Assembly (NCBI GenBank): GCA_021787395.1
Contig: JAJYLZ010000010.1
Location: 4,030 to 68,029 of the forward strand
Origin: Chloroflexota bacterium
Lineage (GTDB): Bacteria > Chloroflexota > Limnocylindria > Limnocylindrales > CSP1-4
Reading direction: 5' to 3'
Length of the DNA: 64,000 nt
Position numbers and translations under genes: made by a program. Below are positions 867-34,778 of the stretch, one piece after another; position 1 is the stretch's first letter; each line of letters opens with the position of its first letter. The notes under the pieces were generated by a model. That model did not search any database, had not been told where the DNA came from, and saw nothing but the letters and a program-made list of their open reading frames with translations.

Positions 867-920
867 GGCCGACGTTCCCCGATTCCGCGGTCCGAACGAC
901 CCTCATCTCGCGCCCTTCTC

Positions 921-940
921 TACCCTATACCTATAGGGTA
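921..940. promoter_or_regulatory. Candidate operator: perfect 9-bp inverted repeat TACCCTATA-cc-TATAGGGTA
   Basis: An AT-rich perfect palindrome read directly from the sequence. It lies in the 204-nt divergent gap between the GntR gene (start 866) and folD (start 1071), standing out against GC-rich DNA. Confidence 0.45.
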
Positions 941-1070
941 ACATCGTTGGGACGTCCCCTGACCGCTGTGCCGCGAGCACGTCGTTCGCGCTCGGCGGCA
1001 GTCAGGCGCTGCCGAGTTCGAGAGGTTCGACCGTGACGACAGTCCCGACGCAGGCGCGGACGCCCCACGC

Positions 1071-1994: not shown

Positions 1995-3701
<1,707 letters not shown>

Positions 3702-4703: not shown

Positions 4704-4755
4704 GAGCGGGCCGAGCGGGCCTCCCGGGAGCCCTCCCAAAGACCACATGGTTCAG

Positions 4756-5179
4756 GGTCGTTCACGAATCGCGGAACTACTGGGGAGTTGGGGACGGCTG
4801 CGGGTGGCGGGGATCTCCGGCAGGCCGCCCTCCCTCCGACGCGCGGCGGGTCGCCCGTGCCGAGGCCGGTGCGGGCCGCTGGTGCGGCTGGGTCGGTCCG
4901 GGCCGCCCGTGCGGGCCGCCGGCGCGGCTGGGTCGGTGCCGAGCCCGGTGCGGCTGGGTCGGTGCCTGGCCCGTGCGGGCGGCCGGTGCGGCTGGGTCGG
5001 TGCCTGGCTCGTGCGGAGGCCGGGTGCTGCTGGGCGGGGCCCAAGATCGTTCCGCGATTCGTGAACGACCCGGAATCGAGGGTCGGGCGGAGACCCCACC
5101 CCGCGGCGCGAGGCCGGCCCATGGACCAGCTGGGGTGCTACGTCCCGGCGAATCGCGATCGTTCGCGAATAGCGGAACC
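4756..5179. repeat. REP-like palindromic repeat array A (3 copies, core GTTC[CG]GCGATTCG[CT]GAAC)
   Basis: Copies at 4756-4777, 5049-5070 (an exact 22-nt reverse complement of the first) and 5157-5179. The array is intergenic, between the 3' ends of the AEC permease gene and iolE. Confidence 0.75.
4867..5040. repeat. Degenerate tandem repeat (unit core GGTGCGGCTGGGTCGGTGCC, 4 copies, period 26-40 nt)
   Basis: Copies at 4881-4900, 4921-4940, 4947-4966 and 4985-5004, with CCGTGCGGGC(C/G)GCC interspersed. The repeat lies between the inverted REP copies. Confidence 0.65.
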
Positions 5180-5294
5180 AACCGCGCGCCGGGCGGAGGC
5201 GCGCGGCGAGGCGCGGCGGCGGGCGCGGCGGTGCGGCGCAGGGCGGCGGAGCGCGCGGCAGCGCAGAGGCGCAGAGGCGGCGGGACGGCGCGAC

Positions 5295-6164
5295 TCAGGC
5301 CCCGAGCAGGCCCTCGAGGTAGACGCGGTTGGCGCGCGCCGTCGCCGTCGGGTCGGGCGCGGTGTCCTGCTCGATGACGTACCAGCCGTCGTACCCGACC
5401 CGCTGCAGCGCCTCGACGACCTCCGGGATCCGGGCCATGCCCCGGCCGAGGGGCGGGAAGATGTAGTGGGCCAGCGCCTGGCCGAAGGACCAGCCCCCGG
5501 CCCTCGCCTGGGCCAGCACGTCCGGGTCCACGTCCTTCGCGTGGACGTGGCGGACCCGGTCGGCGTACCCCGGCAGGAGGTCGATCGCGTTGCCGCCGCC
5601 GAAGGCCAGGTGGCCGATGTCGAGGCACCACCCCACCAGGTCCGGGTCGGTCTCGTCGAGCAGGCGCGCGGTCTCGGCCGGCGTCTCGACGTAGGTCCCC
5701 ACGTGGTTGTGGAACGCGAGCGTCATGCCCAGGGGCCTCAGCCGGCGGGCCAGCTCCTGCAGCCCGCCCGCCAGGTTCCGCCACTGCGCGTCGGTCAGCC
5801 CGCGGGACTCGTCCACGTGGCCCGCCTCGCCGCGGCGCCGGTCGTCGCCGGCCTCCGCGGCGATCAGCACCCTGCCGCCGTTCTTGGTGAGGAAGTCGGC
5901 GATGCCCAGCGCCCGCTCGAGCTCCGCGTCCCAGCGGTCGCGGTCCCGGAAGCCCAGCCCCACGAACGCGCCGACCAGGTCCAGGCCCCGGCTGCCCAGG
6001 GCCTCCCGGAGCTCGTCGGGGTCCGTCGGCATCGACGGGCCCCATTCGGTGGCGTCGTAGCCGGCCTCGACCATGCGGTCGAGCGCCTCGCCGTACGGCA
6101 TCCACGGGAACACGTCCGGGATGTCCGGGCTGTTCCAGTTGACGATCGCGGTGGCGATCCGCAT
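5295..6164 (-). CDS. iolE: Inosose dehydratase-like sugar phosphate isomerase/epimerase (xylose-isomerase-like TIM barrel)
   Basis: 289 aa. AP-endonuclease-2/IolE-type TIM-barrel motifs (AFHNHVGTYVETPAE, CLDIGHL, HVHAKDVD, YVIEQD). It lies immediately downstream of iolD on the same strand. Confidence 0.72.
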   Translation of the reverse strand: MRIATAIVNWNSPDIPDVFPWMPYGEALDRMVEAGYDATEWGPSMPTDPDELREALGSRGLDLVGAFVGLGFRDRDRWDAELERALGIADFLTKNGGRVLIAAEAGDDRRRGEAGHVDESRGLTDAQWRNLAGGLQELARRLRPLGMTLAFHNHVGTYVETPAETARLLDETDPDLVGWCLDIGHLAFGGGNAIDLLPGYADRVRHVHAKDVDPDVLAQARAGGWSFGQALAHYIFPPLGRGMARIPEVVEALQRVGYDGWYVIEQDTAPDPTATARANRVYLEGLLGA

Positions 6165-6209
6165 CCGGATACCTCCCTCGTGCGACGAGCGGTGCCCGTC
6201 GCGACGTGC

Positions 6210-8090
6210 CTAGGCGAGCTCCTCCCGCTGGAGCGCCGCGGCCTGCTCGTACCGCGCGCGGGCCGCGACGACTAGGTCCGACCCGCTGACCTCGGCCGGC
6301 GGGACGTCCCACCAGCTCTCGTAGCCCGGGGCTCGCTTGTCGGGGTTGACGTAGACGTGGATCACGGTCGTGCGGTCCGCCGTGCGGGCGGCCGCGATCG
6401 CGTCGCGGATCTCCTGCTCGGTGTGCGCGGTGACCCCGATCGCGCCCATCGCCTCGGCGTGCTTGGCGAAGTCCACCGGGATGTAGCCGCCGGTCAGGCG
6501 CCCGGTGCCGCCCTCGCGGAAGCGCAGCTCGTTGCCGAACTGGGGCACGCCGCAGCTCCAGGCCAGGTCCTTGATGCACTGGAAGCCGTGGTTGTCGAAC
6601 ACGACCACGGTCATCTTCACGCCCTCGGCGACCGCGGTGACGATCTCGCTGTTCAGCATCAGGTAGGTCCCGTCGCCGATGGCGACGACCACCTCGCGCT
6701 CGGGCTCGGCCATCTTGACGCCGATGCCGGCCGGGATCTCGTAGCCCATGCAGGAGTAGCCGTACTCGAGGTGGTAGGCCTTGCTGTCCTCGGGCCGCCA
6801 CAGCTTGAGCAGGTCGCCGGGCAGCGAGCCCGCCGCGCACACGACCGTGGCGTGGCCGCCGACGGCGTCGTTGACGATGCCGATGACCTCGGGCTGGGCG
6901 AGGTCGCCCGGATCGCCGCCGGGCCGCCGGTGGAAGTCGACCCGGGCGTCCCACTCCTCCTTCAGGTCGCCGATCCGGTCGCGGTAGGCCTGGCTGGTGC
7001 CGGGGTGGTCGGCCAGCGCCGCCGTGAGCGAGAGCAGCGCCTCTCGGGCGTCGGCCACCAGCGCGACGGCGCGCACCTTGTTGGCGTCGAACCCGTTGAG
7101 GTTGATGCCGACGAAGGTCGCGTCCTCGTTCTGGAAGGCCGTCTTGGACGCGGTGACGAAGTCGCCCATGCGGGTGCCGATGGCGATGACGAGGTCCGCC
7201 TCCTTGGCCAGGCGGTTGGCGGCGAGGCCGCCCGCCGCCCCGACCGGGCCCACGTTCAGGGGGTGGTTCCAGGGCAGGACGCCCTTGCCCGCCTGGCTCT
7301 CGCTGACCGGGATGCCGAAGGTGGTGGCGAAGGCGTCGAGCGCCGCCTCGGCGCCGGAGTAGATCGCCCCGCCGCCGGCGACGATGAGCGGCTGCCGCGC
7401 CGTGCGGATGAGCTCGGCCACCTCGGCCAGGACGGCGGGCTCCGGGACGGGCCGGCGCACGTGCCAGACGCGCTTGGCGAAGAACCGCTCCGGCCAGTCG
7501 TAGACCTCGGCCTGGACGTCCTCGGGCAGGGCCACGGTCACCGCGCCCGTCTCGGCCGGGTCGGTGAGCACGCGGAAGGCCTCGGGCAGGGATGACAGCA
7601 GCTGCTCCGGGCGGCTGATCCGGTCGAAGTAGCGGCTGACCGGGCGGAACGCGTCGTTGGCCGACACGTCGTGCTCGACCGGGTGCTCCACCTGCTGCAG
7701 GACCGGGTCGGGCAGGCGGTTCGCGAAGTAGTCCGACGGGAGCAGCAGGACCGGCAGCCGGTTCACCGTCGCCTGCGCGGCGCCGGTGACCATGTTCGTG
7801 GCGCCGGGCCCGATCGAGCTCGTGCAGGCGAACGTCTGCAGCCGGTTCTTGTGCTTCGCGTAGGCGGCGGCGAGGTGCACCTGCGCCTGCTCGTTCTGGG
7901 GGCGGTAGTAGGGCATCTGGCACTCGTCGCCGAGCTCCTCGAGCGCCTGACCGAGGCCGGCGACGTTGCCGTGGCCGAAGATCCCCCAGACGCCGGCGAT
8001 GAAGCGGCTCTCGACGCCGTCACGCTCGACGTACTGCGCCGCCAGGAACTTGACGATCGCCTGTCCGACCGTCAGCCGGATGGTGGACAA
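6210..8090 (-). CDS. iolD: 3D-(3,5/4)-trihydroxycyclohexane-1,2-dione acylhydrolase (ThDP-dependent)
   Basis: 626 aa. N-terminus MSTIRLTVGQAIVKFLAAQYVERDG...GIFGHGNVAGLGQALEE and the ThDP motif GDGTYLMLNSEI are typical of IolD. Confidence 0.92.
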   Translation of the reverse strand: MSTIRLTVGQAIVKFLAAQYVERDGVESRFIAGVWGIFGHGNVAGLGQALEELGDECQMPYYRPQNEQAQVHLAAAYAKHKNRLQTFACTSSIGPGATNMVTGAAQATVNRLPVLLLPSDYFANRLPDPVLQQVEHPVEHDVSANDAFRPVSRYFDRISRPEQLLSSLPEAFRVLTDPAETGAVTVALPEDVQAEVYDWPERFFAKRVWHVRRPVPEPAVLAEVAELIRTARQPLIVAGGGAIYSGAEAALDAFATTFGIPVSESQAGKGVLPWNHPLNVGPVGAAGGLAANRLAKEADLVIAIGTRMGDFVTASKTAFQNEDATFVGINLNGFDANKVRAVALVADAREALLSLTAALADHPGTSQAYRDRIGDLKEEWDARVDFHRRPGGDPGDLAQPEVIGIVNDAVGGHATVVCAAGSLPGDLLKLWRPEDSKAYHLEYGYSCMGYEIPAGIGVKMAEPEREVVVAIGDGTYLMLNSEIVTAVAEGVKMTVVVFDNHGFQCIKDLAWSCGVPQFGNELRFREGGTGRLTGGYIPVDFAKHAEAMGAIGVTAHTEQEIRDAIAAARTADRTTVIHVYVNPDKRAPGYESWWDVPPAEVSGSDLVVAARARYEQAAALQREELA

Positions 8091-8167
8091 CGGAGGCCTC
8101 CTCTCGTGGGAGCTGCAGTGGCCCAGGGCCGCCCTGTCGGCGCCGGACGTGGTGGTGCAATGGCGTG

Positions 8168-8181
8168 GGTAATCGTTTACA
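8168..8181. promoter_or_regulatory. LacI-type operator candidate GGTAATCGTTTACA, overlapping a TACACT -10-like hexamer (8178-8183)
   Basis: An imperfect palindrome with a central CG that fits TGnAAnCGnTTnCA on the reverse strand (TGTAAACGATTACC). It lies in the iolD/iolG divergent gap. Confidence 0.5.
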
Positions 8182-8326
8182 CTCTAGACCGCTCAGGCCT
8201 CGGGACGCAACCCTCGCGTCGTTCGCCCAGGGCGGTCGTCCGGGCCGAGCTCGAGCAGCGAGGATCTCACGCCAAGGCCGGTTGACGCCCGAGGGGCGCA
8301 GCGCCAGCAGTCAGGAGGCAGTGCAC

Positions 8327-9319
8327 ATGCTCCGCATCGCGATGCTGGGGGCCGGGCGCGTGGGCCAGGTCCACGCCCGCTCCGTCGTCGCCCACCCGGA
8401 GGCAGAGCTGGCCCTGGTCGTGGACCCGATCGAGGCCGCCGCCACGTCTCTGGCCGCGACCCACGGCACCCGCTGGAGCCTGGACCCCCAGGACGCGTTC
8501 GAGGACGCGTCCATCGACGCGGTGATCATCGGGACGCCCACCAACACCCACACCGAGATGCTCGCCCGCGCGGTGGACGCGGGCAAGAAGGTCCTGCTCG
8601 AGAAGCCGATCGACCTCGACCTCGCCCGGATCGACGACGTCTGGGCCAGGATCCAGGCCAAGGCGCCGTTCGTGATGCTCGGCTTCAACCGCCGGTTCGA
8701 CCCGTCGTTCCGTGAGGTCAAGGAGCGCGTGCAGCAGGGCGAGATCGGGATGGTCCGCGCCCTGCGCATCACCTCGCGCGACCCGCAGCCCCCGCCTGCT
8801 GCCTACCTCTCCGCCTCCGGCGGCATGTTCAAGGACATGACCATCCACGACTTCGACATGGCCCGCTTCCAGGTGGGCGACATGGTGGAGGTCTCCGCCG
8901 TCGCCTCGGACAACGGCCTGGACGCGTTCCGGGAGGCGAATGACCACGCGCAGGCGATCATCACGATGCGCGCCGTGAGCGGCGCCCTGGTGACGATCGT
9001 CGACAGCCGGTCCTGTGCGTACGGCTACGACCAGCGCCTCGAGGCGTTCGGCGACCTGGGCTCGCTCGAGGTGGGCAACTGGACGGCCACCAGCGTCCGG
9101 TCGGCCAGCGCGACCCGGACCGAGGCTGCGGGCCCCCTCCTCAACTTCTTCCTGGAGCGCTACCTGCCGGCGTTCCAGAACGAGCTCGACGAGTTCGTCC
9201 AGGCGATCAAGGCGGACCGCGCCCCGGCGGTCGGGTTCGCCGACGGGCGCGCCGCGCTGGTCCTCGCCGAGGCCGCCAACGAGAGCGTGGCCACCGGTCG
9301 GGTCGTCAAGGTCGGCTGA
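8327..9319 (+). CDS. iolG: myo-Inositol 2-dehydrogenase (Gfo/Idh/MocA family, IdhA-type)
   Basis: Start moved to ATG 8327, which follows AGGAGG (8313-8318). Motifs: MLGAGRVG Rossmann, EKPIDLD, GFNRRFDP, ITSRDP, GGMFKDMTIHDFDMARF, YGYDQRLE. The match to rhizobial IdhA is close, from memory. Confidence 0.88.
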   Translation: MLRIAMLGAGRVGQVHARSVVAHPEAELALVVDPIEAAATSLAATHGTRWSLDPQDAFEDASIDAVIIGTPTNTHTEMLARAVDAGKKVLLEKPIDLDLARIDDVWARIQAKAPFVMLGFNRRFDPSFREVKERVQQGEIGMVRALRITSRDPQPPPAAYLSASGGMFKDMTIHDFDMARFQVGDMVEVSAVASDNGLDAFREANDHAQAIITMRAVSGALVTIVDSRSCAYGYDQRLEAFGDLGSLEVGNWTATSVRSASATRTEAAGPLLNFFLERYLPAFQNELDEFVQAIKADRAPAVGFADGRAALVLAEAANESVATGRVVKVG

Positions 9320-9373
9320 CGCCCCGGGGCCGGGCACCGGGCGGCGTGAGCGAGGCAGCACCCGCCGGCCGCC

Positions 9374-10306
9374 TCAGCGGCGCGCCAGCTCCTGCAGTAC
9401 GCGCTCGGCGACCCGCTCCGGCGTGAGCCCGTGGCGCTCCAGCAGCCAGGCGTTGGGCGCCGATTCGCCCCAGGTGTCCTCGATGCCGATCCGGGCGACC
9501 CATCGGGGCTCGTGGGAGGTGACCACCTCGGCGACCAGTCCGCCGAGCCCGCCGAGGACCGAGTGCTCCTCGGTCGCGACCACGAGCGGCACCGCGGCCG
9601 TCGCCTCCGCCAGCGCCGCCGTGTCGAGGGGCTTGACGGACGGCAGGTGGACGACGCCGGCGTCGACCCCGCGCGCGGCGAGCAGGCCGGCCGCGGCCAG
9701 CGTCCGCGCCGTCTGCTGGCCGGTGGACACGAGCAGAACGTCGGCCCCGTCGCGGAGGCGGACGACCCGGCCCGGCTCGAACACGTAGTCGGCGCCGAAC
9801 ACGTCCGGGCCCGCCTCGCGCCCCAGCCGCAGGTAGACCGGCCCCGGCGTCGCGGTGGCCCAGCGGACGATCGCCGCGCACTCCGCGGCGTCGGCCGGGG
9901 CGAGCACCGTCATGTCCGGCATGGCGCGCATGATCGCGAGGTCCTGCACGTCGAGGTGCGTCTTGCCGGAGAAGCCCAGCTGGAGCCCCGAGTAGGCGGC
10001 GCCGATCTTCACGTTGGCCCGGGTCTGGGCCACGGACATCCGCACCTGGTCCACGGCCCGGTGGGTGAAGAACACCGTGAACGAGGACAGCCAGGGCACG
10101 AACCCGAGCGATGCCAGGCCCACGGCGGTGCCCACCATCCCCTGCTCCGCGATCCCCATCTCGAGGAAGCGGTCCGGGAACGCGCGGGCGAACTTCTCCG
10201 CCTTGGTGGACGTCGCGAGGTCCGCGTCGAGGACCAGCAGGTCCGGATTCGAGGCGCCCAGCTCGACCAGCGTGTCGGCCCACACGTCCCGCTGCGGCGC
10301 GCTCAC
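9374..10306 (-). CDS. Transketolase, C-terminal (pyrimidine-binding/C-terminal domain) subunit
   Basis: This is the lower half of the 618-aa track ORF. GTG at 10306 overlaps the upstream stop (GTGA). Motifs: FPDRFLEMGIAEQGMVG, GKTHLDVQDLAIMRAMP, PVYLRLGRE. Confidence 0.9.
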   Translation of the reverse strand: MSAPQRDVWADTLVELGASNPDLLVLDADLATSTKAEKFARAFPDRFLEMGIAEQGMVGTAVGLASLGFVPWLSSFTVFFTHRAVDQVRMSVAQTRANVKIGAAYSGLQLGFSGKTHLDVQDLAIMRAMPDMTVLAPADAAECAAIVRWATATPGPVYLRLGREAGPDVFGADYVFEPGRVVRLRDGADVLLVSTGQQTARTLAAAGLLAARGVDAGVVHLPSVKPLDTAALAEATAAVPLVVATEEHSVLGGLGGLVAEVVTSHEPRWVARIGIEDTWGESAPNAWLLERHGLTPERVAERVLQELARR

Positions 10307-11196
10307 TGCGCTGCCTCGCCCAGCTCCGCCCGGGCCGCGGCGACCTCGTCGGCCGTGGCCGCCCGCGCGTGCCAGGCCGACGCGCCCTGCGTGAAGCTGA
10401 AGCCGCGGCCCTTGACCGTGCTCGCCAGGATGGCGGTCGGCGCCCCGCCGCCGGCCGCGGCCCTGGCAGCCTCGCAGGCGTCGATGATCTGGCCGAAGTC
10501 GTGGCCGTCGATCTCGAGGACGCGCCAGCCGAACGCCTCGAGTGCGGCCCGCGCCGCCACGTCGCCGAACGGGTCCCGCCGGTCGCCGCGGTGGGTCTCG
10601 CCCGGGCGGAGGGGCCAGCCGTACTGCTGCATGCCGTTGCGGTCCACGATCATCGTCAGGTTGCCGAGCCCGTACTTCGCGGCCACGGCGACGCTCTCCC
10701 AGACCTGGCCCTCCTGCATCTCGCCGTCGCCGAGCAGCACCCAGGTGTGGAAGTCGAGCCCGCGCAGCCGAGCGCCGAGCGCCATCCCCACGCCCACCGA
10801 GATCCCCTGCCCCAGCGAGCCCGTGGAGGCGTCCAGGCCGGGCAGCCGGGTCATGTCGGGATGGCCCTGGAGGCGCGAGCCGGCCTGGTCGAACGTGCGG
10901 AGCTCGTCCACGGGCAGGTAGCCGGCCAGGGCCATGGCCGTGTACAGCCCGATCGCGGAATGCCCCTTGGACAGGACGAAGCGGTCGCGGTCCGGCCAGT
11001 CCGGCTGGTCGGGCCGGATGCGCATCACGCGCAGGTACAGCGCCACCAGCAGGTCCATCGCTGAGAGGGGCCCGCCGACGTGGCCGGCGCCGGCTGCATT
11101 GGTGCTCTCGAGGACCAACAGGCGGCCGCGTCGAGCGAGCGCCTCGAGGTCGGCGTGGGCGCCGGGGCCTGGCGAGGCGGGAGGCGTGGCGGGCAT
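10303..11196 (-). CDS. Transketolase, N-terminal (ThDP-binding) subunit
   Basis: Motifs: GHVGGPLS, DRFVLSKGHS, GSLGQG, LGDGEMQEGQVWE. I prefer ATG 11196, which follows GAGGAG, over ATG 11226 in the track. Confidence 0.88.
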   Translation of the reverse strand: MPATPPASPGPGAHADLEALARRGRLLVLESTNAAGAGHVGGPLSAMDLLVALYLRVMRIRPDQPDWPDRDRFVLSKGHSAIGLYTAMALAGYLPVDELRTFDQAGSRLQGHPDMTRLPGLDASTGSLGQGISVGVGMALGARLRGLDFHTWVLLGDGEMQEGQVWESVAVAAKYGLGNLTMIVDRNGMQQYGWPLRPGETHRGDRRDPFGDVAARAALEAFGWRVLEIDGHDFGQIIDACEAARAAAGGGAPTAILASTVKGRGFSFTQGASAWHARAATADEVAAARAELGEAAQ

Positions 11197-11268
11197 GCGC
11201 AGCTCCTCGATGGTCGGCCGCCGCATTCACCGGCGACGGCTTCCATGTTCCCAGATTCCAGCGTACAA

Positions 11269-11282
11269 TGCAATCGATTACA
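11269..11282. promoter_or_regulatory. LacI-type operator candidate TGCAATCGATTACA
   Basis: It fits the LacI-family consensus TGnAAnCGnTTnCA. It lies in the transketolase/LacI divergent gap, flanked by TACAAT (11264-11269, plus strand) and TGTAAT on the minus strand. Confidence 0.55.
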
Positions 11283-11356
11283 CCACGACGTCCCCGCAGC
11301 CCGCCGGCGGCAGCGCGCCTCCTGCCTTGACGGGACCGAATGCGTCATCTAGGCTG

Positions 11357-11370
11357 CGAAATCGATTACG
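11357..11370. promoter_or_regulatory. LacI-type operator candidate CGAAATCGATTACG
   Basis: A second AATCGATT-core site, 88 nt from the first and upstream of the LacI gene. Confidence 0.45.
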
Positions 11371-11514
11371 TCCGCACGGCGCATGGGGTCGCCGCCCGGG
11401 GGTGGACGAGGGTCGCGAGGCTCGGGAGGGTTTCGGGATGCGGCGCATGCGAACAGCGGCGGCGGCCGATGGCCCGGTCCGAGGGTCGGGCGCCCCCATC
11501 GGGACGGTCGCCCC

Positions 11515-12558
11515 ATGAGCGATCGCGGCGCTCCGGCCACCATCCGCGACGTCGCGCGGCGGGCGGGGGTGTCCACGGCCACTGTGAGCCGCGTCCTGGC
11601 GGGGATCGGCAACCCGCGAACGGAGACCGCGGACGCGGTGATGGCCGCCGTCGTGGCGCTCGACTACCGCCCGTCGGCGGTGGCCCGGTCGCTGCGGATG
11701 CGCCGGACCAACACCTTCGGGCTGATCGTGACCGACATCCAGAACCCCTTCTTCCCCGAGCTCGTGCAGGCCGCCGACGACGCCGCCCGCGGGGTGGGCT
11801 ACTCGATCCTGCTCGGGTCGGCCGCCTACGACGAGCACCGGGCGGTGCACTACCTCGACCTCATGGCCGACCGGCGCGTGGACGGGATGATCGTCGCCTC
11901 GAGCCGGGTCTCGGACGAGAGCTGGCGCTGGCTCGCCGCCAGCCCGGTTCCGGTCGTGGTGGTCAACGCGGAGCCCGCCAACGTGCCGATCACGGTCATC
12001 ACCAGCGACAACCGCGGCGGGATGCAGCTGGCCGCCGAACACCTCGTCGGGCTCGGCCACCGGCGCATGGCCTACGTCCGCGGCGAGGAGGGCATCACCG
12101 CGGACCAGCCGCGGGTCGAGGGCTTCCGGGCCGCCTGCCGGGCGGCGGGCATCCCCGCCTCGGACATCGTCGAGCTCCACGGCAACGCCCAGTTCGAGGG
12201 CGGCGAGCGGGCCGTGGCCGAGCTGGTGCGCAGCGGCCTGGACGTCACCGCGATCGCGTGCCACAACGACATCACCGCCATCGGCGCCCTGCGCGCGCTC
12301 CGGGCCGAGGGCGTCCGCGTTCCCCACGACGTGAGCGTCATCGGCTGCGACGACATCGCCGCGGCGTCGTGGGTCGTCCCCTCGCTCACCACCGTCGCCC
12401 AGCAGAAGGCCGAGATGGGGCGGATGGCCGTCGAGCGCCTGCTCGCCATGCTCGACGCCGGCGTGGGCGGCATCGCCCCCGCGACCATCCGCGTCCCGAT
12501 GGTCCTCCAGGTGCGCGAATCCACAGGACCGGCCCCGACCGGAGGCGTGCGGCCCTGA
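11515..12558 (+). CDS. LacI-family transcriptional regulator
   Basis: Start moved to ATG 11515. The N-terminus ATIRDVARRAGVSTATVSRVL is the LacI HTH, followed by a periplasmic-binding-protein-like sugar domain. Confidence 0.9.
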   Translation: MSDRGAPATIRDVARRAGVSTATVSRVLAGIGNPRTETADAVMAAVVALDYRPSAVARSLRMRRTNTFGLIVTDIQNPFFPELVQAADDAARGVGYSILLGSAAYDEHRAVHYLDLMADRRVDGMIVASSRVSDESWRWLAASPVPVVVVNAEPANVPITVITSDNRGGMQLAAEHLVGLGHRRMAYVRGEEGITADQPRVEGFRAACRAAGIPASDIVELHGNAQFEGGERAVAELVRSGLDVTAIACHNDITAIGALRALRAEGVRVPHDVSVIGCDDIAAASWVVPSLTTVAQQKAEMGRMAVERLLAMLDAGVGGIAPATIRVPMVLQVRESTGPAPTGGVRP

Positions 12559-12627
12559 CGAACTGCCGCCGCAGGCGGCCACCACAGACCAGCCGGCGAG
12601 GCCCGGCTTCGAGCGGAGACACAGCAC

Positions 12628-13527
12628 ATGGTTCGCGTCGCCAACGCCCCCTGCTCGTGGGGGGTGATCGAGGGCATCGAGGGCGAGACCGCCGGCTACG
12701 CCAAGGTCATCGACGAGATGGCCGAGACCGGCTACATCGGCACCGAGCTCGGCGACTGGGGCTTCATGCCCACCGACCCCGACCGGCTCAGGAGCGAACT
12801 CGACGCACGCGGGCTGGCGCTGATCGGCTCGTGGGTCAGCGTCTGGCTGCACGACAAGTCGAAGCACCGGAGCTCGGCCGACGACGCCGTCCGAACCGCC
12901 AAGCAGCTGGCGCGAGTGGGCGGCAGGGAGGCCGTCGTCGTCCTGGGCAACGACCCCTACGGCGACCCGCTCCGGACCAAGATCGCCGGCCGCGTCCGCC
13001 CGCAGGACGGCCTCTCCGACGAGCAGTTCCAGGTCCTCGCCGAGGGGGCCAACTACGTGGCCCGGCGGGTCTGGGACGAGGCTGGCATCCGGACCGTCGT
13101 CCACCAGCACATCGGCACCTGGATCGAGACCGAGGCCGAGGCGCGCAGGCTGTTCGACATGACCGACCCCTCGGTGCTGGGCCTGTGCCTCGACACCGGC
13201 CACTGGACGTTCGGCGCCGGGGGCGACCCGGTCGCCGCCGTCCGCGAGTTCCGCGACCGGGTCTGGCACGTCCACTTCAAGGACGCCGACCCGGCGATCA
13301 TGGCCGCCTCCCGCGCCGAGGAGCTCAGCGGCCCGGAGTCGGTGGGACGCGGCGTCTTCTGCGAGCTGGGCCGAGGCGAAGTGGACTTCCCGGGCATGCT
13401 CAGGGCCCTCGAGGACGTCGACTACCGCGGCTGGATCGTCGTGGAGCAGGACGTGCTCCCCGGCATGGGCAACCCCCGGGAGAGCGCCCGCCGGAACCGC
13501 GAGTACCTGCGCTCGATCGGCGTCTAG
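12628..13527 (+). CDS. Second IolE-like sugar phosphate isomerase/epimerase (TIM barrel)
   Basis: 299 aa. Motifs: [35 protein letters not shown]. It is a paralogue of the 5295-6164 product. Confidence 0.82.
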
Positions 13528-13646
13528 CCGGGGTTCGTTCGCGGCGCGGCGGCGGCGCAGGCCGGCTGCCCGCCCAGGCCATCTCGAGTCGTCGGCCGCC
13601 GTTCGGCGGCTGGGGGCCGAGCATCGCGGAATCGTCGGGCAGGCTC

Positions 13647-13902
13647 GGTCGTTCGCGAATCGCGGAACCATTCCGGGCGGGGCCGGGGGTCGTTCCGGGC
13701 GGGCTGGGCGCGTTTCCGGATCGTTCCGCGATTCGCGAACGATCTGGAAACGCAGACAACGACCCGGAACGCCTGCCCTGCCGAGGCGCGGCCCCGGCGA
13801 TAGGCCGATGGCCCGCCCATGGGCGCGCTCCGGGGCAACGGGGGGACCCCCCCCGGGGGGGGTGGGACCCCGGGCGCCGGATCGTTCCGCGATTCGCGAA
13901 CC
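13647..13902. repeat. REP-like palindromic repeat array B (3 copies of the same family as array A)
   Basis: Copies at 13647-13669, 13718-13744 (inverted relative to the first, 20 nt identical) and 13879-13902. The array is intergenic, between the convergent 3' ends of the TIM-barrel gene and iolA. Confidence 0.75.
13840..13874. repeat. G/C homopolymer palindrome G6-A-C8-G8-T-G3-A-C4-G3
   Basis: Read directly from the sequence. The C8G8 core is a perfect 16-nt palindrome. Confidence 0.7.
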
Positions 13903-14095
13903 ACCCGGAACCGCCGAGCTGGCAGACCACTAGCCAGGCGCCGGGCTCGGCTCGGGCAGGCGCCGGGCACGGCTCGGGCGCGGCGGGCCATGGCTCGGCG
14001 AGACCGGGCCACGTTCTGTCGGGCGCCAGCTCACAGCTCGGGCGGGCCGGCCCCAGCGACGCGGTCCGGCAGTCGGCAGCGGCCAGATACACGAA

Positions 14096-14118
14096 GGCGC
14101 CGTCGGGATGACGGCGCC
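14096..14118 (-). terminator. Hairpin terminator candidate downstream of iolA
   Basis: GGCGCCGTC-5 nt-GACGGCGCC gives a perfect 9-bp stem. On the minus strand it is followed by TTCGTGTATC. Confidence 0.5.
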
Positions 14119-14190
14119 TCGCGATGCTGCTGGCCGGAGACGCCCGGAGGGTCCGGGCGGCCCCGACCTCAGCGCGGGTTCAGCGGAGGC

Positions 14191-15717
14191 TCAGGAGTTG
14201 CCGGGGAAGACCAGCGAGAGCGGGCCCTCCTTGCCGGGCTCGGGCCAGCGCTCGGTGACCATCTTCTGCTGGGTCCAGAAGCGGACGCCGTCCTCGCCGC
14301 GCATCGGCAGGTCGCCGATCGCGGAGTCCTTGGCGCCCGCGAAGCTCATGAAGCCGGCCGGCACCGGGATCGGCACGTTGATGCCGATCATCGGCACGTC
14401 CACTTCGAGCTTGAACCGCCGGGCAGCGCCGCCGTTGGTCGTGAAGATCGCGGTGCCGTTGGCGTACTTGTGCCCGTTGATGAGGGCCAGGCCCTCCTCG
14501 TAGGTCTGCGCGTGGACGATGCCGAACACCGGGCCGAAGATCTCCTCGTTGAAGATCTTCATCTCGGGCGTGACGTTGTCGAACAGGGACACGCCGAGGA
14601 AGAAGCCGTCGGGGTTCGGGCCCTGGAACTTGCGCCCGTCCACCACCAGCTCCGCGCCCTCGGACTCGCCGACGCCGATCCACTTGACGATCGACTCGCG
14701 GTGCTCCTGGCTGTAGATCGGGCCCATGTCGGCGCCCGGCTCCATGCCGTCGGTGATCTTGAGCTTCGCGATCCGCTCCAGGATCTTGGGGCGCAGCCGC
14801 TCCCCGGTGTCGCCCACCGCGACCATCAGGGTCTGGGCCATGCACCGCTCGCCCGCGGAGCCGAAGCCCGAGGCGACCGCCGCGTCGGCGACCAGGTCCA
14901 GGTCGGCGTCCGGCAGGACGAGCATGGCGTTCTTGGCCGAGGTGTACGCCCCGACCCGCTTGCCGCGCTTGGTGCCCTCCTCGAACACGTACCGGCCGAC
15001 GGCCGTGGACCCGACGAACTGGATCGCCTTGATGTCCTTGTGCTCGACGATCGCCTTCACGGCCTCCTTGCCGCCGTAGACGATGTTGAAGGTGCCGGCG
15101 GGGCCGCCGGCCTGGCTCCACAGCTCGGCCTGGAGCTGGGTGGCGCCCGGCGTGTGGGAGGACGGCTTGAGGATGACCGTGTTGCCGGCCATCAGCGCGA
15201 TCGGGTAGATCCAGGTCGGGACCATGACCGGGAAGTTGAACGGCGTGATCGCCGCCGTGACGCCCAGCGGGACCCGGAGCGTCTCGGTGTCCACCTTGGT
15301 CGACACGTTGGGCGTGTTCATGCCCGACATGTGGACCGGCAGGCCGCAGGCGAAGTCGATGGTCTCGATGCCGCGGAGCACCTCGGCCAGGGCGTCGGGG
15401 AACGTCTTGCCGTGGTCGCGGGTGACCAGGCGGGCGAGCTCCTCGCGGTGCTCGTACATCAGCGCGCGGAAGTTGAAGAAGATGTTGCTGCGCGCGATGA
15501 GCGGCATGTCGCGCCAGGCCGGGAAGGCGGCCTTGGCGGCCTCGACGGCCGCATCAACCTCGGCCTGGCCACCGCGCGGCACGCGGGCGATCACCTTGCC
15601 GTTGGCCGGGTTGTAGACCGGGCCGGTCTGCTCGGGCAGGACCTCGACCGCGGTGCCGTTGATGTAGTGCGAGAGGATCGGCAGGACCGCCGCCTCGTTC
15701 GGGGTGTCGATGGCCAC
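14191..15717 (-). CDS. iolA: CoA-acylating methylmalonate/malonate-semialdehyde dehydrogenase
   Basis: 508 aa. Aldehyde dehydrogenase motifs: ITPFNFP, FVGST, GERCMA, EEIFGPV. The overall MmsA/IolA pattern includes the HYINGT N-terminus. Confidence 0.92.
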   Translation of the reverse strand: MAIDTPNEAAVLPILSHYINGTAVEVLPEQTGPVYNPANGKVIARVPRGGQAEVDAAVEAAKAAFPAWRDMPLIARSNIFFNFRALMYEHREELARLVTRDHGKTFPDALAEVLRGIETIDFACGLPVHMSGMNTPNVSTKVDTETLRVPLGVTAAITPFNFPVMVPTWIYPIALMAGNTVILKPSSHTPGATQLQAELWSQAGGPAGTFNIVYGGKEAVKAIVEHKDIKAIQFVGSTAVGRYVFEEGTKRGKRVGAYTSAKNAMLVLPDADLDLVADAAVASGFGSAGERCMAQTLMVAVGDTGERLRPKILERIAKLKITDGMEPGADMGPIYSQEHRESIVKWIGVGESEGAELVVDGRKFQGPNPDGFFLGVSLFDNVTPEMKIFNEEIFGPVFGIVHAQTYEEGLALINGHKYANGTAIFTTNGGAARRFKLEVDVPMIGINVPIPVPAGFMSFAGAKDSAIGDLPMRGEDGVRFWTQQKMVTERWPEPGKEGPLSLVFPGNS

Positions 15718-15762
15718 CAGTTGCCTCCAGTTGCGACGATTCGTTGGGGACGCGCCGCCGGC

Positions 15763-16857
15763 TCAGCCGGGCTTGGCGTCTGGGTTGGGAAGAACGATAT
15801 CCCTGACGACGCCCACGAGATCGTGGTACGACGCGATGAACCCGCGCAAGGTCCGCGCGGTCGCGCCATAGGTCACGAATTCAGCCGGGGTCAGGCCGTC
15901 TGGCTCGTACGCCCGCCGGAAGTCCGGGACCCGCTCGAGCAGGTCGTCGACCAGCGCCTGGTCGACCGGGACGTCGATGCGCGGGACCGGATCGATGCCG
16001 GAGCTGTTGAACCGGACCTGCCAGGCGTAGGGCATCGTGAGCACGACGTCCGCGCCGACGAGCTCGGTCCAGTGCAGGCGGTGGCGGTAGGCGGCCGCCA
16101 GCAGCCGCGTGCGGTAGCCGCGCTCGCGGTAGATGCCGTAGGCGCGCTTGAAGGCGGCGATGCCGGCCCAGCTCGACGCGGCCGGGTCGAGCGCGATCGA
16201 GTCCCGCTCGACGAGGATCTTCATCCAGTCGTCGAGCCGCCCCACCATGAGCGAGCAGACCGGCGACATCCGGCTCGAGTCGCCGCCGGCCGCCTCGAAC
16301 CGCCGGATCCCGCGCTCGACGGCCTCGGCGGCCGCGATGCACTGCGCCACGGTGAACACGACCGTCACGTTGGCGACCACGCCCCGGGCCGTGGCCTCCT
16401 CGACCGCCACCAGGCCCTCCGCGGTGCACGGGAACTTGACCTGGATGTTGGGGGCCAGGGTGCTGAAGTGGACCGCCTGCTCCACCATCCGGTCCGGAGT
16501 GCGGTAGTTGGCGGGGTTGGTCTGCAGCGACAGCCGGCCCTTCCTGCGGTCGTGCGCCTCGAACACCGGCTGCAGGATCGCGGCGCCGCGGACGCCCATC
16601 TCCTCGATCAGCTGCCAGGTGATCTCGACCTCGGACCAGTTGGGGTTCTGGGCGGCGATCTCGCGCACACGCGGGACCCAGTGGTCCTTCTCCTTCTTCA
16701 TCACCTCGCCGACGATCGTCGGGTTCGAGGTGGCGCCGGTCCCCCCGCGGGCGACCGCGTACTCCAGCTCGGCGACCGCGCAGGAGTCGTTCCAGAAGTC
16801 GGTCGGGGTGGTCTCGACCATCTTCGCGAGGGGGCTGGCGGCGGCAGTCAGGGTCAT
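15763..16857 (-). CDS. Transaldolase-family protein
   Basis: 364 aa. Motifs: FWNDS, GATSNPTIV, RLSLQTNP, IQVKFPCT (Schiff-base Lys context), NVTVVFT. The ATG overlaps the iolB stop by 4 nt. Confidence 0.88.
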   Translation of the reverse strand: MTLTAAASPLAKMVETTPTDFWNDSCAVAELEYAVARGGTGATSNPTIVGEVMKKEKDHWVPRVREIAAQNPNWSEVEITWQLIEEMGVRGAAILQPVFEAHDRRKGRLSLQTNPANYRTPDRMVEQAVHFSTLAPNIQVKFPCTAEGLVAVEEATARGVVANVTVVFTVAQCIAAAEAVERGIRRFEAAGGDSSRMSPVCSLMVGRLDDWMKILVERDSIALDPAASSWAGIAAFKRAYGIYRERGYRTRLLAAAYRHRLHWTELVGADVVLTMPYAWQVRFNSSGIDPVPRIDVPVDQALVDDLLERVPDFRRAYEPDGLTPAEFVTYGATARTLRGFIASYHDLVGVVRDIVLPNPDAKPG

Positions 16858-17753
16858 GCGGACGTGTCCTCCTGGGCCCGTGGCGCTGCCGGAGACCAGT
16901 TCATCAGCCAGGCGTGGTCCGGGTCGATCGTGAAGTGCCAGGCCCGGTTGGGGCCGGCCATGATGTTGAGGTAGTAGGCGTCGTACCCGGCCGGCGCACC
17001 GAACGGGTGGTAGCCCTCGGGGACGATCACGATGTCGCAGTCGCCCACCGCCATCGATGCGTCGAGCGAGCGGTCCGCGGTGTACACGCGCTGGAAGCCG
17101 AAGGCGCCCGGCCGGGCGAACCGGTAGAAGTAGAGCTCCTCGAGGTAGGCCTCGACCGGTGGGTTCTCGGTGTCGTGCTTGTGGGGCGGGTAGCTGCTCC
17201 AGTTGCCGCCCGGCGTGTACACCTCGAACGCGATCAGGCGGCCCGCCGCCATCTGTGGGTCGAGCAGGTGGTGGATCCGGCGGGCGGTCTGCCCCTCGCC
17301 CCGCGCCTCGACGAGGATCTCCTCGGGGGCGATGTACCGGGTGCTCCTGACGGGGCCGCCGGGCGCGGCCGCGACCACCACGAGGGCGTCGGACGCGGCG
17401 ACCACGCGGATCGCGTCGCCGGGCGCGGCGAGCACGACCGGCGCGGCCGGGCCGTCGAACACGCTGGCGCGCGAGCCGACCCGCTCCAGCTCGAGGCCGC
17501 CGGCGGTCACCGAGGCGTACCCCTCGAGCACCAGCACCAGGCGCTCCTGGCCGTCGGCGTCGCGGGAGATGGCCTGGCCCGGGGCCAGGCGGTGGACGGT
17601 CGCGGTCACCCAGTCCCAGCCGGCATTGTCGGGGTCGACGTGGCCGATCACGCCGTCGGGGTCCGGGCGGGCCGCGCGGCGGAGGAGGTGCCGCGCGGCC
17701 CCCGGGGGATTGCTGGCGGGGTTCGGGTTGCCGGCCGCTGGAACAGGGGTCAT
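16854..17753 (-). CDS. iolB: 5-deoxy-glucuronate isomerase
   Basis: Motifs GGNWSSYPPHKHD, YLEELYFYRF, GYHPFGAPAGYDAYYLNIMAGP are diagnostic of IolB. I prefer ATG 17753, which follows GAAGGAAG, over the track TTG at 17777. Confidence 0.9.
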   Translation of the reverse strand: MTPVPAAGNPNPASNPPGAARHLLRRAARPDPDGVIGHVDPDNAGWDWVTATVHRLAPGQAISRDADGQERLVLVLEGYASVTAGGLELERVGSRASVFDGPAAPVVLAAPGDAIRVVAASDALVVVAAAPGGPVRSTRYIAPEEILVEARGEGQTARRIHHLLDPQMAAGRLIAFEVYTPGGNWSSYPPHKHDTENPPVEAYLEELYFYRFARPGAFGFQRVYTADRSLDASMAVGDCDIVIVPEGYHPFGAPAGYDAYYLNIMAGPNRAWHFTIDPDHAWLMNWSPAAPRAQEDTSA

Positions 17754-17772
17754 CCGGACTTCCTTCACGCTC

Positions 17773-17786
17773 GGCAATCGATTACA
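17773..17786. promoter_or_regulatory. LacI-type operator candidate GGCAATCGATTACA
   Basis: The 12-mer GCAATCGATTAC is identical to the site at 11270-11281. It lies in the iolB/DapA-like divergent gap. Confidence 0.55.
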
Positions 17787-17886
17787 TGAGAATGATGACG
17801 CCCCTCTCGGGGGGCGTCAAGGGGCGACCCGACTTCCGGCCGTCGTGTAGCCTCGCGGGTGCAGGATGCTTCGGCACGGAGGCGGC

Positions 17887-18828
17887 ATGGGCGACATCAC
17901 GGCGCTGCGCGGGGTCTGGAACATCGTCCCGACCCCCTTCCTTCCCGACGGCACGCTCGACACCGCCTCGATCCCCCGCCTGGTCGACTTCGTGCGGGCG
18001 ACCGGCGTGGACGGCCTCACGATCCTGGGCGTGCTGGGCGAGGCGGGACGCCTGGGCGACGCCGAGCGGTCCGCGGTGCTCCACGCCGCGATCGAGGCGG
18101 CGGACGGGTCGCTGCCGGTCTGCGCCGGCGTCTCGCACGCTGCCACCGATCGCGCGGTCGCCTTCGCCCGCGAGGCCCAGGCCGCCGGCGCGCACAGCGT
18201 GATGCTGGCGCCGCCGCCCCTGGCCCGACCCACGGACGCCGCGCTCCGCCGCCACTACCTCGCCGTCGCCGGTGCCGTGGACCTGCCGATCGTCGTCCAG
18301 GACCACCCCGCCTCGTCGGGCGTCGTGATGTCGGTCGAGTTCCTGCTGTCCCTGGCGGTCGAGGCGCCCGCCTGCCGGGTCGTGAAGCTCGAGGAGGAGC
18401 CCACCCCGCCCAAGGCGGGCCGCCTCGTGGCCGGCTCGAGCGAGCTCCTGGTGCTGGGCGGGCTGGGCGGCGAGATGCTGATCGAGGAGCTGGGCCGCGG
18501 CACCCACGGGACGATGACGGGCTTCGGCTTCCCCGAGGTGCTGGTGGCCGTGGTGCGACGGTGGTTCGCCGGCGACCGGGCGGGCGCGGCCCGGCTGTTC
18601 GACCGCTACGCGACGCTCATCCGGTTCGAGAACCAGGCCCTGCTCAACCTGCCCATCCGGAAGCACCTCTACCAGCGCCGCGGCGCCATCGCGCACGCGA
18701 CGGTCCGCGCCCCCGGCGTGCCGGCCGACCCGGCCACGCTGGACGACCTCGAGGCCATCCTGCGGCGGGTCGGCCTGGACCGGCACCTCGCGGCGGGGTC
18801 GGTCCTGCCAGAGCTGCTCGCCGGCTGA
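17887..18828 (+). CDS. Dihydrodipicolinate synthase/N-acetylneuraminate lyase family protein (class I aldolase/dehydratase fold)
   Basis: Motifs: TPF..DG.LD, GVDGLTILGVLGEAGRL, and a candidate Schiff-base Lys in RVVKLEE. I prefer ATG 17887, which follows GGAGG, over 17866. Confidence 0.82.
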   Translation: MGDITALRGVWNIVPTPFLPDGTLDTASIPRLVDFVRATGVDGLTILGVLGEAGRLGDAERSAVLHAAIEAADGSLPVCAGVSHAATDRAVAFAREAQAAGAHSVMLAPPPLARPTDAALRRHYLAVAGAVDLPIVVQDHPASSGVVMSVEFLLSLAVEAPACRVVKLEEEPTPPKAGRLVAGSSELLVLGGLGGEMLIEELGRGTHGTMTGFGFPEVLVAVVRRWFAGDRAGAARLFDRYATLIRFENQALLNLPIRKHLYQRRGAIAHATVRAPGVPADPATLDDLEAILRRVGLDRHLAAGSVLPELLAG

Positions 18829-18840
18829 GCGGCCGGATCC

Positions 18841-19608
18841 TCAGGGCAGCGAGCGGACCATCCCCCCGTCCACGGGCACGATCGCCCCGGTCACGAACGA
18901 CGAAGCGGGCGAGAGCAGGAACGCCCCGACGCGGCCGATCTCGGCGATCTCGCCGTACCGGCCGAGCGGGATCGTCGCCTGCGAGCGGCGCGCGATCTCG
19001 TCCGGCGTGACGCCGGCGGCCTTCGCGCGCACCCCGTCGAGGTAGGCGACGCGGTCGGTGGCGATCCGCCCCGGCGCCAGGCCGTTGATGCGCACCGGCG
19101 CGATCTCCGCCGTCAGCGTCTTGATCAGCCCGGCCAGGCCCGGCCGCAGCACGTTGGAGGCGATCAGGCCCGGGATGGGCTCGCGGACCGAGGACGAGAC
19201 CACGATCAGGATCGACGGGTCGACGCCCGCGCGGAGGTGGGGCAGTCCCGCCCGGATGAGCCGCAGCACGGAGTGCAGGGTGCCGTTGATCGCGGTCTCC
19301 CAGGCGGCCTCGTCGAGCGACTCGAAGGTGCCGCTCGGCGGCCCGCCGGTGCACGCGACCAGCAGGTCGAGCCCGCCCATCCCGGCCACTGCCGCCGCCA
19401 CCGCGCCGGACGGCCCGTCGGGCGTGGAGAGGTCGGCCACCACGGGCACGCCGCCGAGGCGCCGGGCCTCGGCCCGGACCCGCTCCGCGGTCCTCCCGAT
19501 CAGCGCGACCCGCGCCCCCTCCCCCGCGAGCGCTGCCGCGATGCCGTTGCCGATGCCCGATGCGCCCGCGCCCACGAGGGCCCGTCGCCCGGCAAGTCCG
19601 AGATCCAT
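18841..19608 (-). CDS. SDR-family oxidoreductase
   Basis: 255 aa. GAGASGIGNGIA cofactor motif, a classical short-chain dehydrogenase layout, and a C-terminal GAIVPVDGG. Confidence 0.88.
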   Translation of the reverse strand: MDLGLAGRRALVGAGASGIGNGIAAALAGEGARVALIGRTAERVRAEARRLGGVPVVADLSTPDGPSGAVAAAVAGMGGLDLLVACTGGPPSGTFESLDEAAWETAINGTLHSVLRLIRAGLPHLRAGVDPSILIVVSSSVREPIPGLIASNVLRPGLAGLIKTLTAEIAPVRINGLAPGRIATDRVAYLDGVRAKAAGVTPDEIARRSQATIPLGRYGEIAEIGRVGAFLLSPASSFVTGAIVPVDGGMVRSLP

Positions 19609-27592: not shown

Positions 27593-27721
27593 CTCGGTCC
27601 AAGCCTAGGCGCCGCCGCTACCGTCGTCGGTTGCGGTCCGGTAGCGCGACGGTGCCCTTGCAGTCGAACCGTAACCCTGCCGGTGCTGGTGTGCCAGCGT
27701 CGTGGCCATATCCTGTGCGAT

Positions 27722-30625: not shown

Positions 30626-30767
30626 CGGCGCCCCGGCCCGCTGCGGGGCGCGGGCACGATGCGGAGGCCCGCAGCGACGGGAGGTCGCGCGGACGCGAGG
30701 CGCGGGCGGCCGCGGCGCGGCACCATGTCCACGCGCCGCGGCGGCGCCCAGCACACGTGGAGGCGGC

Positions 30768-31877: not shown

Positions 31878-31894
31878 CCGCCGTCCCCGGGACC

Positions 31895-31960: not shown

Positions 31961-31997
31961 GCCCTGGTGCGATGCCGGGCAAAGGCCCGGCGCGGGT

Positions 31998-34778
<2,781 letters not shown>

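Follow-up and report, generated by a model that had tools for sequence, protein, structure and literature searches.

The 64-kb window analysed here is part of a 97-kb metagenome contig of a Chloroflexota bacterium (JAJYLZ010000010.1). It carries a cluster of inositol catabolism genes in which a gene of the transaldolase/fructose-6-phosphate aldolase (TAL/FSA) superfamily, called tal below (product, Tal), is located between iolB and iolA. We propose, at a probability of roughly 60%, that this one enzyme cleaves 5-dehydro-2-deoxy-D-gluconate (DKG), the product of IolB, and transfers its three-carbon unit, standing in for the kinase IolC together with the aldolase IolJ. That the enzyme cleaves DKG in one way or another, transfer and simple lyase activity taken together, we regard as distinctly probable; the DKG-cleaving proposal is plausible and well supported by comparative genomics.

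Due to the G+C content of the window (~73%), raw lists of open reading frames (ORFs) were noisy; the genes were defined by third-position GC (GC3) calling and by gene calls on the source contig, which agreed with each other. Families were assigned with the curated cutoffs of NCBIfam and the gathering scores of Pfam.

Structure and regulation of the iolB-tal-iolA operon

The genes iolB, tal, and iolA were confirmed to form one operon on the minus strand (Table 1). The coordinates given for them in the preliminary description were found by both gene-calling sources, and the family profiles matched; the 4-nt overlap of tal with iolB and the 45-nt gap between tal and iolA, which had also been reported, could be read directly in the sequence. 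The ATG of tal shares the letters ATGA with the stop codon of iolB (...TCC GCA TGA) and has GGAGGA 9 nt upstream, and the GTG start of iolA behind the gap is served by its own GGAGG. The ribosome-binding site GAAGGAAG lies ahead of the iolB ATG at 17753. A single sigma-70-like promoter was detected within 13500–18000; it is located 5' of iolB, with its -35 element at 17820–17815 and its -10 element at 17797–17792. The preliminary inventory of the cluster was thus right for the three operon genes, while it overlooked the split transketolase (9374–11226), a DHDPS-family gene next to iolB, and the absence of the catalytic glutamate from Tal.

LacI-type operators (Table 1) were found at the iolB promoter and elsewhere in the cluster. 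A palindrome resembling TGTAATCGATTACA occurs at four sites in the window, all in divergent promoter regions of the cluster (8 strand matches versus 0.6 expected). Related loci amounting to 1.4 Mb contained 23 copies of a TGTAATCGATTACA-like motif, nearly always 5' of iol genes; it precedes iolB in 12 related loci and iolD in 6, and was also seen ahead of tktN (L004), iolG (L014), and lacI. Since one operator motif precedes iolB, iolD, iolG, and tktN both here and in relatives, iolB-tal-iolA, iolD-iolE, iolG, and the split transketolase genes probably belong to a single regulon.

Fold and active site of the enzyme

All ten NCBIfam models of transaldolases and FSA scored below their cutoffs with the 364-aa Tal protein (PRK03343, the best of them, reached 115 bits, its cutoff being 367), and the nearest solved structure by sequence, transaldolase 3R5E of Corynebacterium glutamicum, gave just 73 bits in phmmer. 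An AlphaFold model derived from 32 diverse homologues reached a pLDDT of 95.9 and was superposed by Foldseek on 7BBX, 3R5E, and 3CLM with TM scores of 0.80–0.83 at ~20% identity. The match to PF00923, the TIM-barrel fold, and the Schiff-base lysine with its set of Asp, Asn, and Thr residues place the protein in the TAL/FSA superfamily.

Active-site residues were mapped by alignments with TalB and FsaA and by conservation in 32 diverse family members. The key residues are D24 (D17 of TalB, D6 of FSA), N45 (N35, N28), Q112 (E96, Q59), the Schiff-base lysine K141 (K132, K85), N163, T165 (T156, T109), M204 (F178, Y131), R207 (R181 of TalB), and R258 (R228 of TalB), the two arginines being mapped on TalB alone; by alignment they correspond to the anion (phosphate)-binding arginines of that enzyme. 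D24, K141, and T165 were near-invariant across the 32 members. Y317 and K237 are also near-invariant in the family, and either of them might be an alternative acid/base. Glutamine occupies the position of Q112 in at least 90% of the family, in place of the glutamate of classical transaldolases, and methionine occupies that of M204 in most of it, which agrees neither with Phe178 of TalB nor with Tyr131 of FSA. In FSA, the catalytic residues include Gln59, and Tyr131 acts as the proton shuttle (PMC13259622).

Judged by its sequence, the protein is a member of the TAL/FSA superfamily that is neither a classical transaldolase (EC 2.2.1.2), because Gln112 replaces Glu96 of TalB and Met204 replaces Phe178, nor an FSA. 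The label "transaldolase" given to it earlier therefore stands for the superfamily (133 bits, the fold, and Lys141) and does not hold for the classical enzyme, against which Gln112, Met204, and the failure of the curated models speak.

Conservation of the linkage

The family is large: a word-indexed search returned more than 7,700 matches, and a representative library at 50% identity contained 323 clusters at E ≤ 1e-30, with close relatives mostly from Candidatus Limnocylindrales. Species-representative genomes were scanned with an alignment of 8 closer sequences as a query. The best 80 of at least 583 matches were kept with 10-kb flanks each, and all counts out of 80 refer to these loci, in which window proteins and reference proteins were searched for by tblastn. 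The loci belong mostly to Limnocylindria and also to Anaerolineae, Gaiellaceae, other Thermoleophilia, and Solirubrobacterales.

IolB was encoded in 26, IolA in 28, and IolD in 25 of the 80 loci; the two halves of the split transketolase, TktN and TktC, were encoded in 21 and 22, respectively. The neighbourhood of tal with iolB and iolA, proposed earlier as a comparison to be made across genomes, was recovered: iolB adjoins a tal gene of this family in 26/80 genomes, which represent five or more Tal clades from Limnocylindria, Anaerolineae, Gaiellaceae, and other Thermoleophilia, and tal is followed by iolA in 28/80 loci at gaps of 33–80 nt, including loci without iol genes. The 4-nt overlap of iolB and tal was retained in nine loci, one of them in an Anaerolinea genome of 57% GC. 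This recurrence of the adjacency, together with the identical overlap, indicates that the arrangement is not due to chance. In a neighbour-joining tree, the iolB-linked Tals fell into at least five separate clades, which argues for an old and widespread linkage.

A canonical short Tal (~215 aa, with Glu and Phe) is encoded a few kb from the Gln-type Tal in five related loci (L042, L043, L047, L048, and L056), and in two of them (L047 and L048) directly downstream on the opposite strand. In these five loci, the Gln-type Tal is therefore an extra paralogue and not the housekeeping enzyme. Three chimeric proteins of the representative library (P0129, P0145, and P0253) join Tal to an IolE-like barrel (655 aa), to KduI/IolB, and to an IolG-like GFO/IDH/MocA protein; these may be true fusions or merged gene calls, and in either case they reveal adjacency to iol-type genes in other lineages. 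Two copies of Gln-type Tal were encoded within the 14-kb locus of one metagenome-assembled genome (MAG) of Thermoleophilia (L064). Complete MAG chromosomes with the same synteny or with a member of this Tal family also exist (OY969796.1, OY970218.1, and OY970185.1).

The family also occurs in other operons. In a derived sister clade of the window Tal (L017–L053; e.g., L026, 9905–15103, and L023), tal is followed in an operon by mmsA/iolA and genes for a luciferase-like oxidoreductase, a cupin, TktN, and TktC, with a GntR/FadR regulator; the operon is divergent from genes for phosphoenolpyruvate (PEP)-utilising (mobile-domain) proteins and a three-subunit molybdenum hydroxylase. No iol genes were found near this tal-iolA-transketolase operon of the sister clade, so Tal, IolA, and transketolase appear to travel as a module. 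Five further loci (L055, L058, L059, L060, and L065) have a kinase-free operon that encodes an ABC transporter (ATPase, binding protein, and two permeases), a luciferase-like oxidoreductase, a Zn-alcohol dehydrogenase, a xylose-isomerase-like TIM barrel, and, at its end, Tal; a class III aminotransferase gene lies downstream.

Search for IolC- and IolJ-type genes

Neither a PfkB kinase nor a class II aldolase was found in the Pfam scans, which covered the genes from 54 to 55174 of the window. With three IolC proteins, IolJ, the DUF2090 half of Salmonella IolC, DhaK, and DhaL as queries, tblastn gave no match at E < 1e-3 in the whole 64-kb window. The lack of a PfkB kinase and a class II aldolase, originally stated for 5295–19608, thus extends to the full window. 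Its sole FGGY kinase gene lies ~26 kb from the cluster.

The same was seen within 10 kb of the tal gene in relatives: IolJ and DUF2090 were each encoded in 0/80 loci, DhaK/L and FGGY kinases also in 0/80, and a PfkB kinase in 2/80, versus reference canonical iol clusters, where iolC lies beside iolB in 3/3 and a class II aldolase gene is present too in 1/3. Among the 124 other ORFs of 14 diverse iolB-tal loci, kinase families were represented by at most two members each; the Pfam families that recurred among these ORFs were transporters, glycerophosphodiester phosphodiesterase (GDPD), GFO/IDH/MocA, HAD hydrolases, and aldehyde dehydrogenases.

Proposed route

Read from C6, DKG is CH2OH-CO-CHOH-CHOH-CH2-COO-, i.e., a 2-ketose with the D-threo configuration that transaldolases require; owing to the D-gluconate configuration, its C4 and C3 hydroxyls match those at C3 and C4 of D-fructose. 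The stereochemical argument of the preliminary description, in which DKG was treated as a D-threo 2-ketose that can be cleaved to malonate semialdehyde, is right by derivation. IolJ cleaves the same C3–C4 bond in DKG 6-phosphate.

According to our proposal, IolG, IolE, IolD, and IolB would form DKG as in the usual pathway, and DKG would stay unphosphorylated. Lys141 of Tal would then form a Schiff base at the C5 keto group, with Arg207 and Arg258 holding the carboxylate of DKG where transaldolases bind the sugar phosphate, and retro-aldol cleavage between C3 and C4 would follow. The fragment released would be malonate semialdehyde, a product which we infer from the adjacency of tal and iolA; IolA would convert it into acetyl-CoA and CO2. 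The dihydroxyacetone unit bound to the enzyme would be passed to an aldehyde acceptor, most likely glyceraldehyde-3-phosphate (GAP), giving fructose-6-phosphate (F6P). Transfer seems preferable to release of this unit, since the counterpart of Tyr131 is absent and no dihydroxyacetone kinase gene accompanies tal. The LacI-type repressor would control the whole regulon described above, and the transketolase probably rebalances the pools of sugar phosphates.

The full-text literature searched, which does not extend to most subscription-journal papers, yielded no account of a transaldolase acting in the breakdown of inositol; within this literature, the earlier statement that the route is undescribed for inositol holds.

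A more far-reaching idea, to which we give somewhat less than even odds, is that the long transaldolases of the Gln/Met type represent an unrecognised catabolic "kinase-free" clade of Chloroflexota and Actinomycetota, which would feed unphosphorylated ketoses and keto-acids, among them DKG from inositol and further substrates in the other operon types, directly into F6P with an acid/base arrangement unlike those of transaldolase and FSA. The window would then contain a complete non-phosphorylative lower pathway of inositol, widespread in abundant soil bacteria.

Alternative explanations

Several points weigh against replacement of IolC and IolJ by Tal. The exchanges of Glu for Gln and of Phe or Tyr for Met affect catalytic positions, and chemistry of the transaldolase type would have to be assumed for the window enzyme. 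The scheme does not require the co-regulated split transketolase, which may be an ordinary one, and iolC and iolJ could sit elsewhere in the genome, beyond the 97-kb contig. In a cultured organism, Clavibacter michiganensis subsp. insidiosus, plasmid pCI3 (L091, 1154–13089) has a full iol cluster with iolC, a DeoC-type aldolase gene, iolB, iolD, and more, and at its border the gene of a Gln-type Tal (46% identity), which diverges from that of a GntR regulator; the iolA region of this cluster matches in two frames and is probably a frameshifted pseudogene. An Anaerolineaceae MAG (L080) likewise has iolC plus a member of this Tal family. Tal thus does not replace the kinase route in every case, and the bypass of kinase and aldolase claimed in the preliminary description, well in line with the counts for IolJ, DUF2090, and PfkB in relatives, does not extend to these two cases. 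Finally, a 49%-identical Gln-type Tal on a JGI metagenome contig (L089, 952–4684) is encoded after rpiB, an amidohydrolase gene, and the ribulose-phosphate 3-epimerase gene rpe; this pentose-phosphate-like context suggests that some family members may handle phosphorylated sugars.

These observations, and the 286-bit match of TktC to a characterised split transketolase, could be accounted for if Tal and the split transketolase were ordinary pentose-phosphate enzymes co-induced with the inositol genes, with iolC and iolJ (or a DUF2090/DeoC-type aldolase gene) located elsewhere. We consider this decidedly unlikely: it leaves unexplained the change of Glu to Gln and the failure of all curated Tal models, the separate canonical Tal in relatives, the translational coupling of iolB and tal kept across classes, and the near absence of IolJ, DUF2090, and PfkB genes within 10 kb of tal, in contrast to the reference clusters with their iolC, while the adjacency of tal and iolA points to malonate semialdehyde as the product. 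Another possibility is an FSA-like lyase that would yield malonate semialdehyde and free dihydroxyacetone from DKG, the dihydroxyacetone being phosphorylated by a kinase encoded elsewhere. Gln112 does match Gln59 of FSA at the position of the transaldolase glutamate, and the linkage evidence for DKG as the substrate fits a lyase equally well; but the proton shuttle Tyr131 is replaced by Met204, as in most of the family, the fold is that of a 364-aa long-type Tal and not of the 220-aa FSA type, and genes for DhaK/DhaL or FGGY kinases were lacking both near the cluster and in the 80 loci. Release of free dihydroxyacetone thus seems unlikely. The split transketolase itself was considered as the DKG-cleaving enzyme, by analogy with the sulfo-TK: it would transfer C5–C6 to GAP, giving xylulose-5-phosphate and a C4 acid aldehyde, and Tal would have a supporting or parallel role. 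DKG also meets the stereochemistry of transketolase by derivation, the operator is common to the transketolase and iolB, and a bifurcated TK/TAL route for 6-deoxy-6-sulfofructose is a precedent (PMC11659671). This candidate was disfavoured: most iolB-tal loci lack it within 10 kb, and outside Limnocylindria all of them do; moreover, an enzyme that would take up the C4 product is not apparent, and the adjoining dehydrogenase is of the malonate-semialdehyde type, which fits cleavage by Tal and not by transketolase. We regard it as very improbable. Cleavage of DKG by Tal with transfer of the three-carbon unit to GAP remains the reading that we prefer.

Other features of the cluster and its surroundings

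The remaining genes and the operators of the cluster are listed in Table 1. IolG, IolD, IolB, and IolA all exceed the corresponding NCBIfam cutoffs.

Table 1. Genes and LacI-type operators of the inositol cluster (positions in the 64-kb window).
Feature	Position	Strand	Evidence or remark
IolE-like xylose-isomerase-type TIM barrel, copy 1; probable inosose dehydratase	5295–6164	-	TIGR04379, 208 bits (cutoff 290); Pfam AP_endonuc_2
iolD, trihydroxycyclohexane-1,2-dione hydrolase	6210–8090	-	TIGR04377, 907 bits (cutoff 715)
LacI-type operator, iolD/iolG divergent intergenic region	8168–8181
iolG, inositol 2-dehydrogenase	8165–9319	+	TIGR04380, 366 bits (cutoff 355); likely start 8327 (330 aa)
tktC, split transketolase	9374–10306	-	Overlaps tktN by 4 nt; 286 bits to Carboxydothermus split transketolase 6YAJ
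tktN, split transketolase	10303–11226	-	Pfam Transketolase_N, Transket_pyr, and Transketolase_C for the tktN/tktC pair
LacI-type operator, tktN/lacI divergent intergenic region	11269–11282		Perfect match
LacI-type operator, tktN/lacI divergent intergenic region	11357–11370
LacI-family regulator, presumed repressor of the regulon	11383–12558	+	Pfam LacI and Peripla_BP; likely start 11515 (347 aa)
IolE-like TIM barrel, copy 2; dehydratase or inosose isomerase	12628–13527	+	TIGR04379, 186 bits (cutoff 290)
iolA/mmsA, CoA-acylating (methyl)malonate-semialdehyde dehydrogenase	14191–15717	-	TIGR01722 (MMSDH), 598 bits (cutoff 448)
tal, divergent long-type TAL/FSA-family enzyme (364 aa), proposed DKG-cleaving transaldolase	15763–16857	-	Pfam TAL_FSA PF00923, 133 bits (gathering 27)
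iolB, 5-deoxy-glucuronate isomerase (DKG-forming), first gene of the operon	16854–17753	-	TIGR04378, 291 bits (cutoff 205); Pfam KduI
LacI-type operator TGTAATCGATTGCC	17773–17786		Just 3' of the -10 element, 20 nt 5' of the iolB ATG
DHDPS-family class I aldolase/dehydratase homologue, divergent from iolB	17866–18828	+	Pfam DHDPS; below the dapA cutoff

The DHDPS-family gene shares the operator region of iolB. Its nearest named structure is L-2-keto-3-deoxyarabonate dehydratase (117 bits), and it was found in 8/80 loci, all of close relatives; its membership in the inositol pathway is uncertain. The DHDPS family cleaves 2-keto-3-deoxy acids. As DKG is not such an acid and the gene occurs in just those eight relatives, its product was rejected as the missing aldolase. 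Together with a convergent gene of a short-chain dehydrogenase/reductase, it forms a pair beside iolB (17866–19608) that is 76–86% identical in the ~7–8 closest relatives only.

GDPD genes made up 3 of the 124 other ORFs near the iolB-tal clusters, a recurrence that hints at glycerophosphoinositol as a natural source of inositol. Genes of central metabolism surround the cluster: a GntR/UTRA regulator, FolD, and formate-tetrahydrofolate ligase are encoded upstream (54–3701), and PEP carboxylase and an enzyme of the pyruvate, phosphate dikinase/PEP-synthase type downstream (27563–35015).

Two long noncoding stretches (4703–5295 and 13527–14191) flank the block from the first to the second iolE copy. 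All six copies of a 20-nt motif, GTTCCGCGATTCGCGAACGA, lie in these stretches, within 4758–5178 and 13649–13903, in both orientations and with at most one mismatch (0.01 expected); the motif may represent a site bound by a regulator, a REP-like element, or a sign of past mobility. Tandem ~40-nt GC-rich repeats (GCCCGTGCGGGCCGCCGGTGCGGCTGGGTCGGTGCC...) are located at 4865–5022, in the noncoding stretch upstream of the first iolE copy. The Rfam scan of the window gave no match at the gathering thresholds, so these repeated intergenic motifs do not belong to a known RNA family.

A member of the Tal family (33% identity) was encoded on plasmid p1 of Shinella sp. H4-D48 (L092, 7789–13875) inside an operon resembling those of acetoin dehydrogenase (E1 alpha, E1 beta, Tal, E2, and LpdA). 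Its neighbours include genes for HAD and phosphoglycolate phosphatases, for triose-phosphate isomerase, and for two further proteins, a class II aldolase and a TIM-barrel protein.

Significance and comparison with known systems

Myo-inositol and its phosphates are major carbon sources derived from plants and soil, and Limnocylindria are uncultured bacteria with a wide distribution in soil. If correct, the proposed route would give a textbook pathway a new lower branch, with a single enzyme doing the work of a kinase and an aldolase. It would be a second natural case, after the sulfo-TAL pathway, in which transaldolases open the catabolism of unphosphorylated anionic ketoses. It would also correct automated annotation, by which such genomes are otherwise scored as lacking inositol catabolism for want of iolC and iolJ. 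With Gln/Met where related enzymes have Glu/Phe or Gln/Tyr, the family is also an unexplored catalytic variant; the scaffold itself is widely employed in biocatalysis.

With the canonical pathway of the Bacillus type (IolG, IolE, IolD, IolB, IolC, IolJ, and IolA), the window shares IolG, IolD, IolB, IolA, and the proposed final conversion of malonate semialdehyde to acetyl-CoA, and it has two IolE-like barrels that score below the curated IolE cutoff; it differs in having a TAL/FSA gene between iolB and iolA and no IolC or IolJ encoded in the window. The variants of Proteobacteria and Actinomycetes with IolC-DUF2090 or DeoC-type proteins are a precedent for an unrelated aldolase at the IolJ step, as exemplified by the 645-aa IolC of Salmonella and by Clavibacter, which has iolC plus a "deoxyribose-phosphate aldolase". 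These variants keep the kinase and the phosphorylated intermediate, whereas the window cluster is without both kinase and aldolase. In the bifurcated sulfofructose TK/TAL pathway of Faecalicatena, transketolase and transaldolase genes stand together and act on an anionic unphosphorylated ketose, as proposed here; the substrate is another one, and the transketolase is missing from most iolB-tal loci, unlike a core step (PMC11659671).

Among characterised enzymes, the long-type transaldolases of C. glutamicum (3R5E) and Neisseria gonorrhoeae (3CLM) are the best structural matches, being similar in length and architecture, but they have the catalytic glutamate and only ~20% identity to the window protein. 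FSA (E. coli FsaA) belongs to the same superfamily, and its Gln, Asp, Asn, Lys, and Thr are kept in the window protein; it differs in Tyr131 versus Met204 and in length (~220 versus 364 aa), and the hhalign alignment of the two covers just 154 columns. The nearest concept to the proposed route is the sulfo-TAL pathway. Its transaldolase SftT acts on an unphosphorylated anionic ketose and transfers a three-carbon unit to GAP, giving F6P, and the acid aldehyde goes to a dedicated dehydrogenase. The window protein is not closely related to BmSF-TAL (8BC3), with ~36 bits over ~70 residues. SftT is a short enzyme (~220 aa) with the canonical glutamate and a sulfonate substrate, whereas the window protein is long, has glutamine at that position, and would act on a carboxylate.

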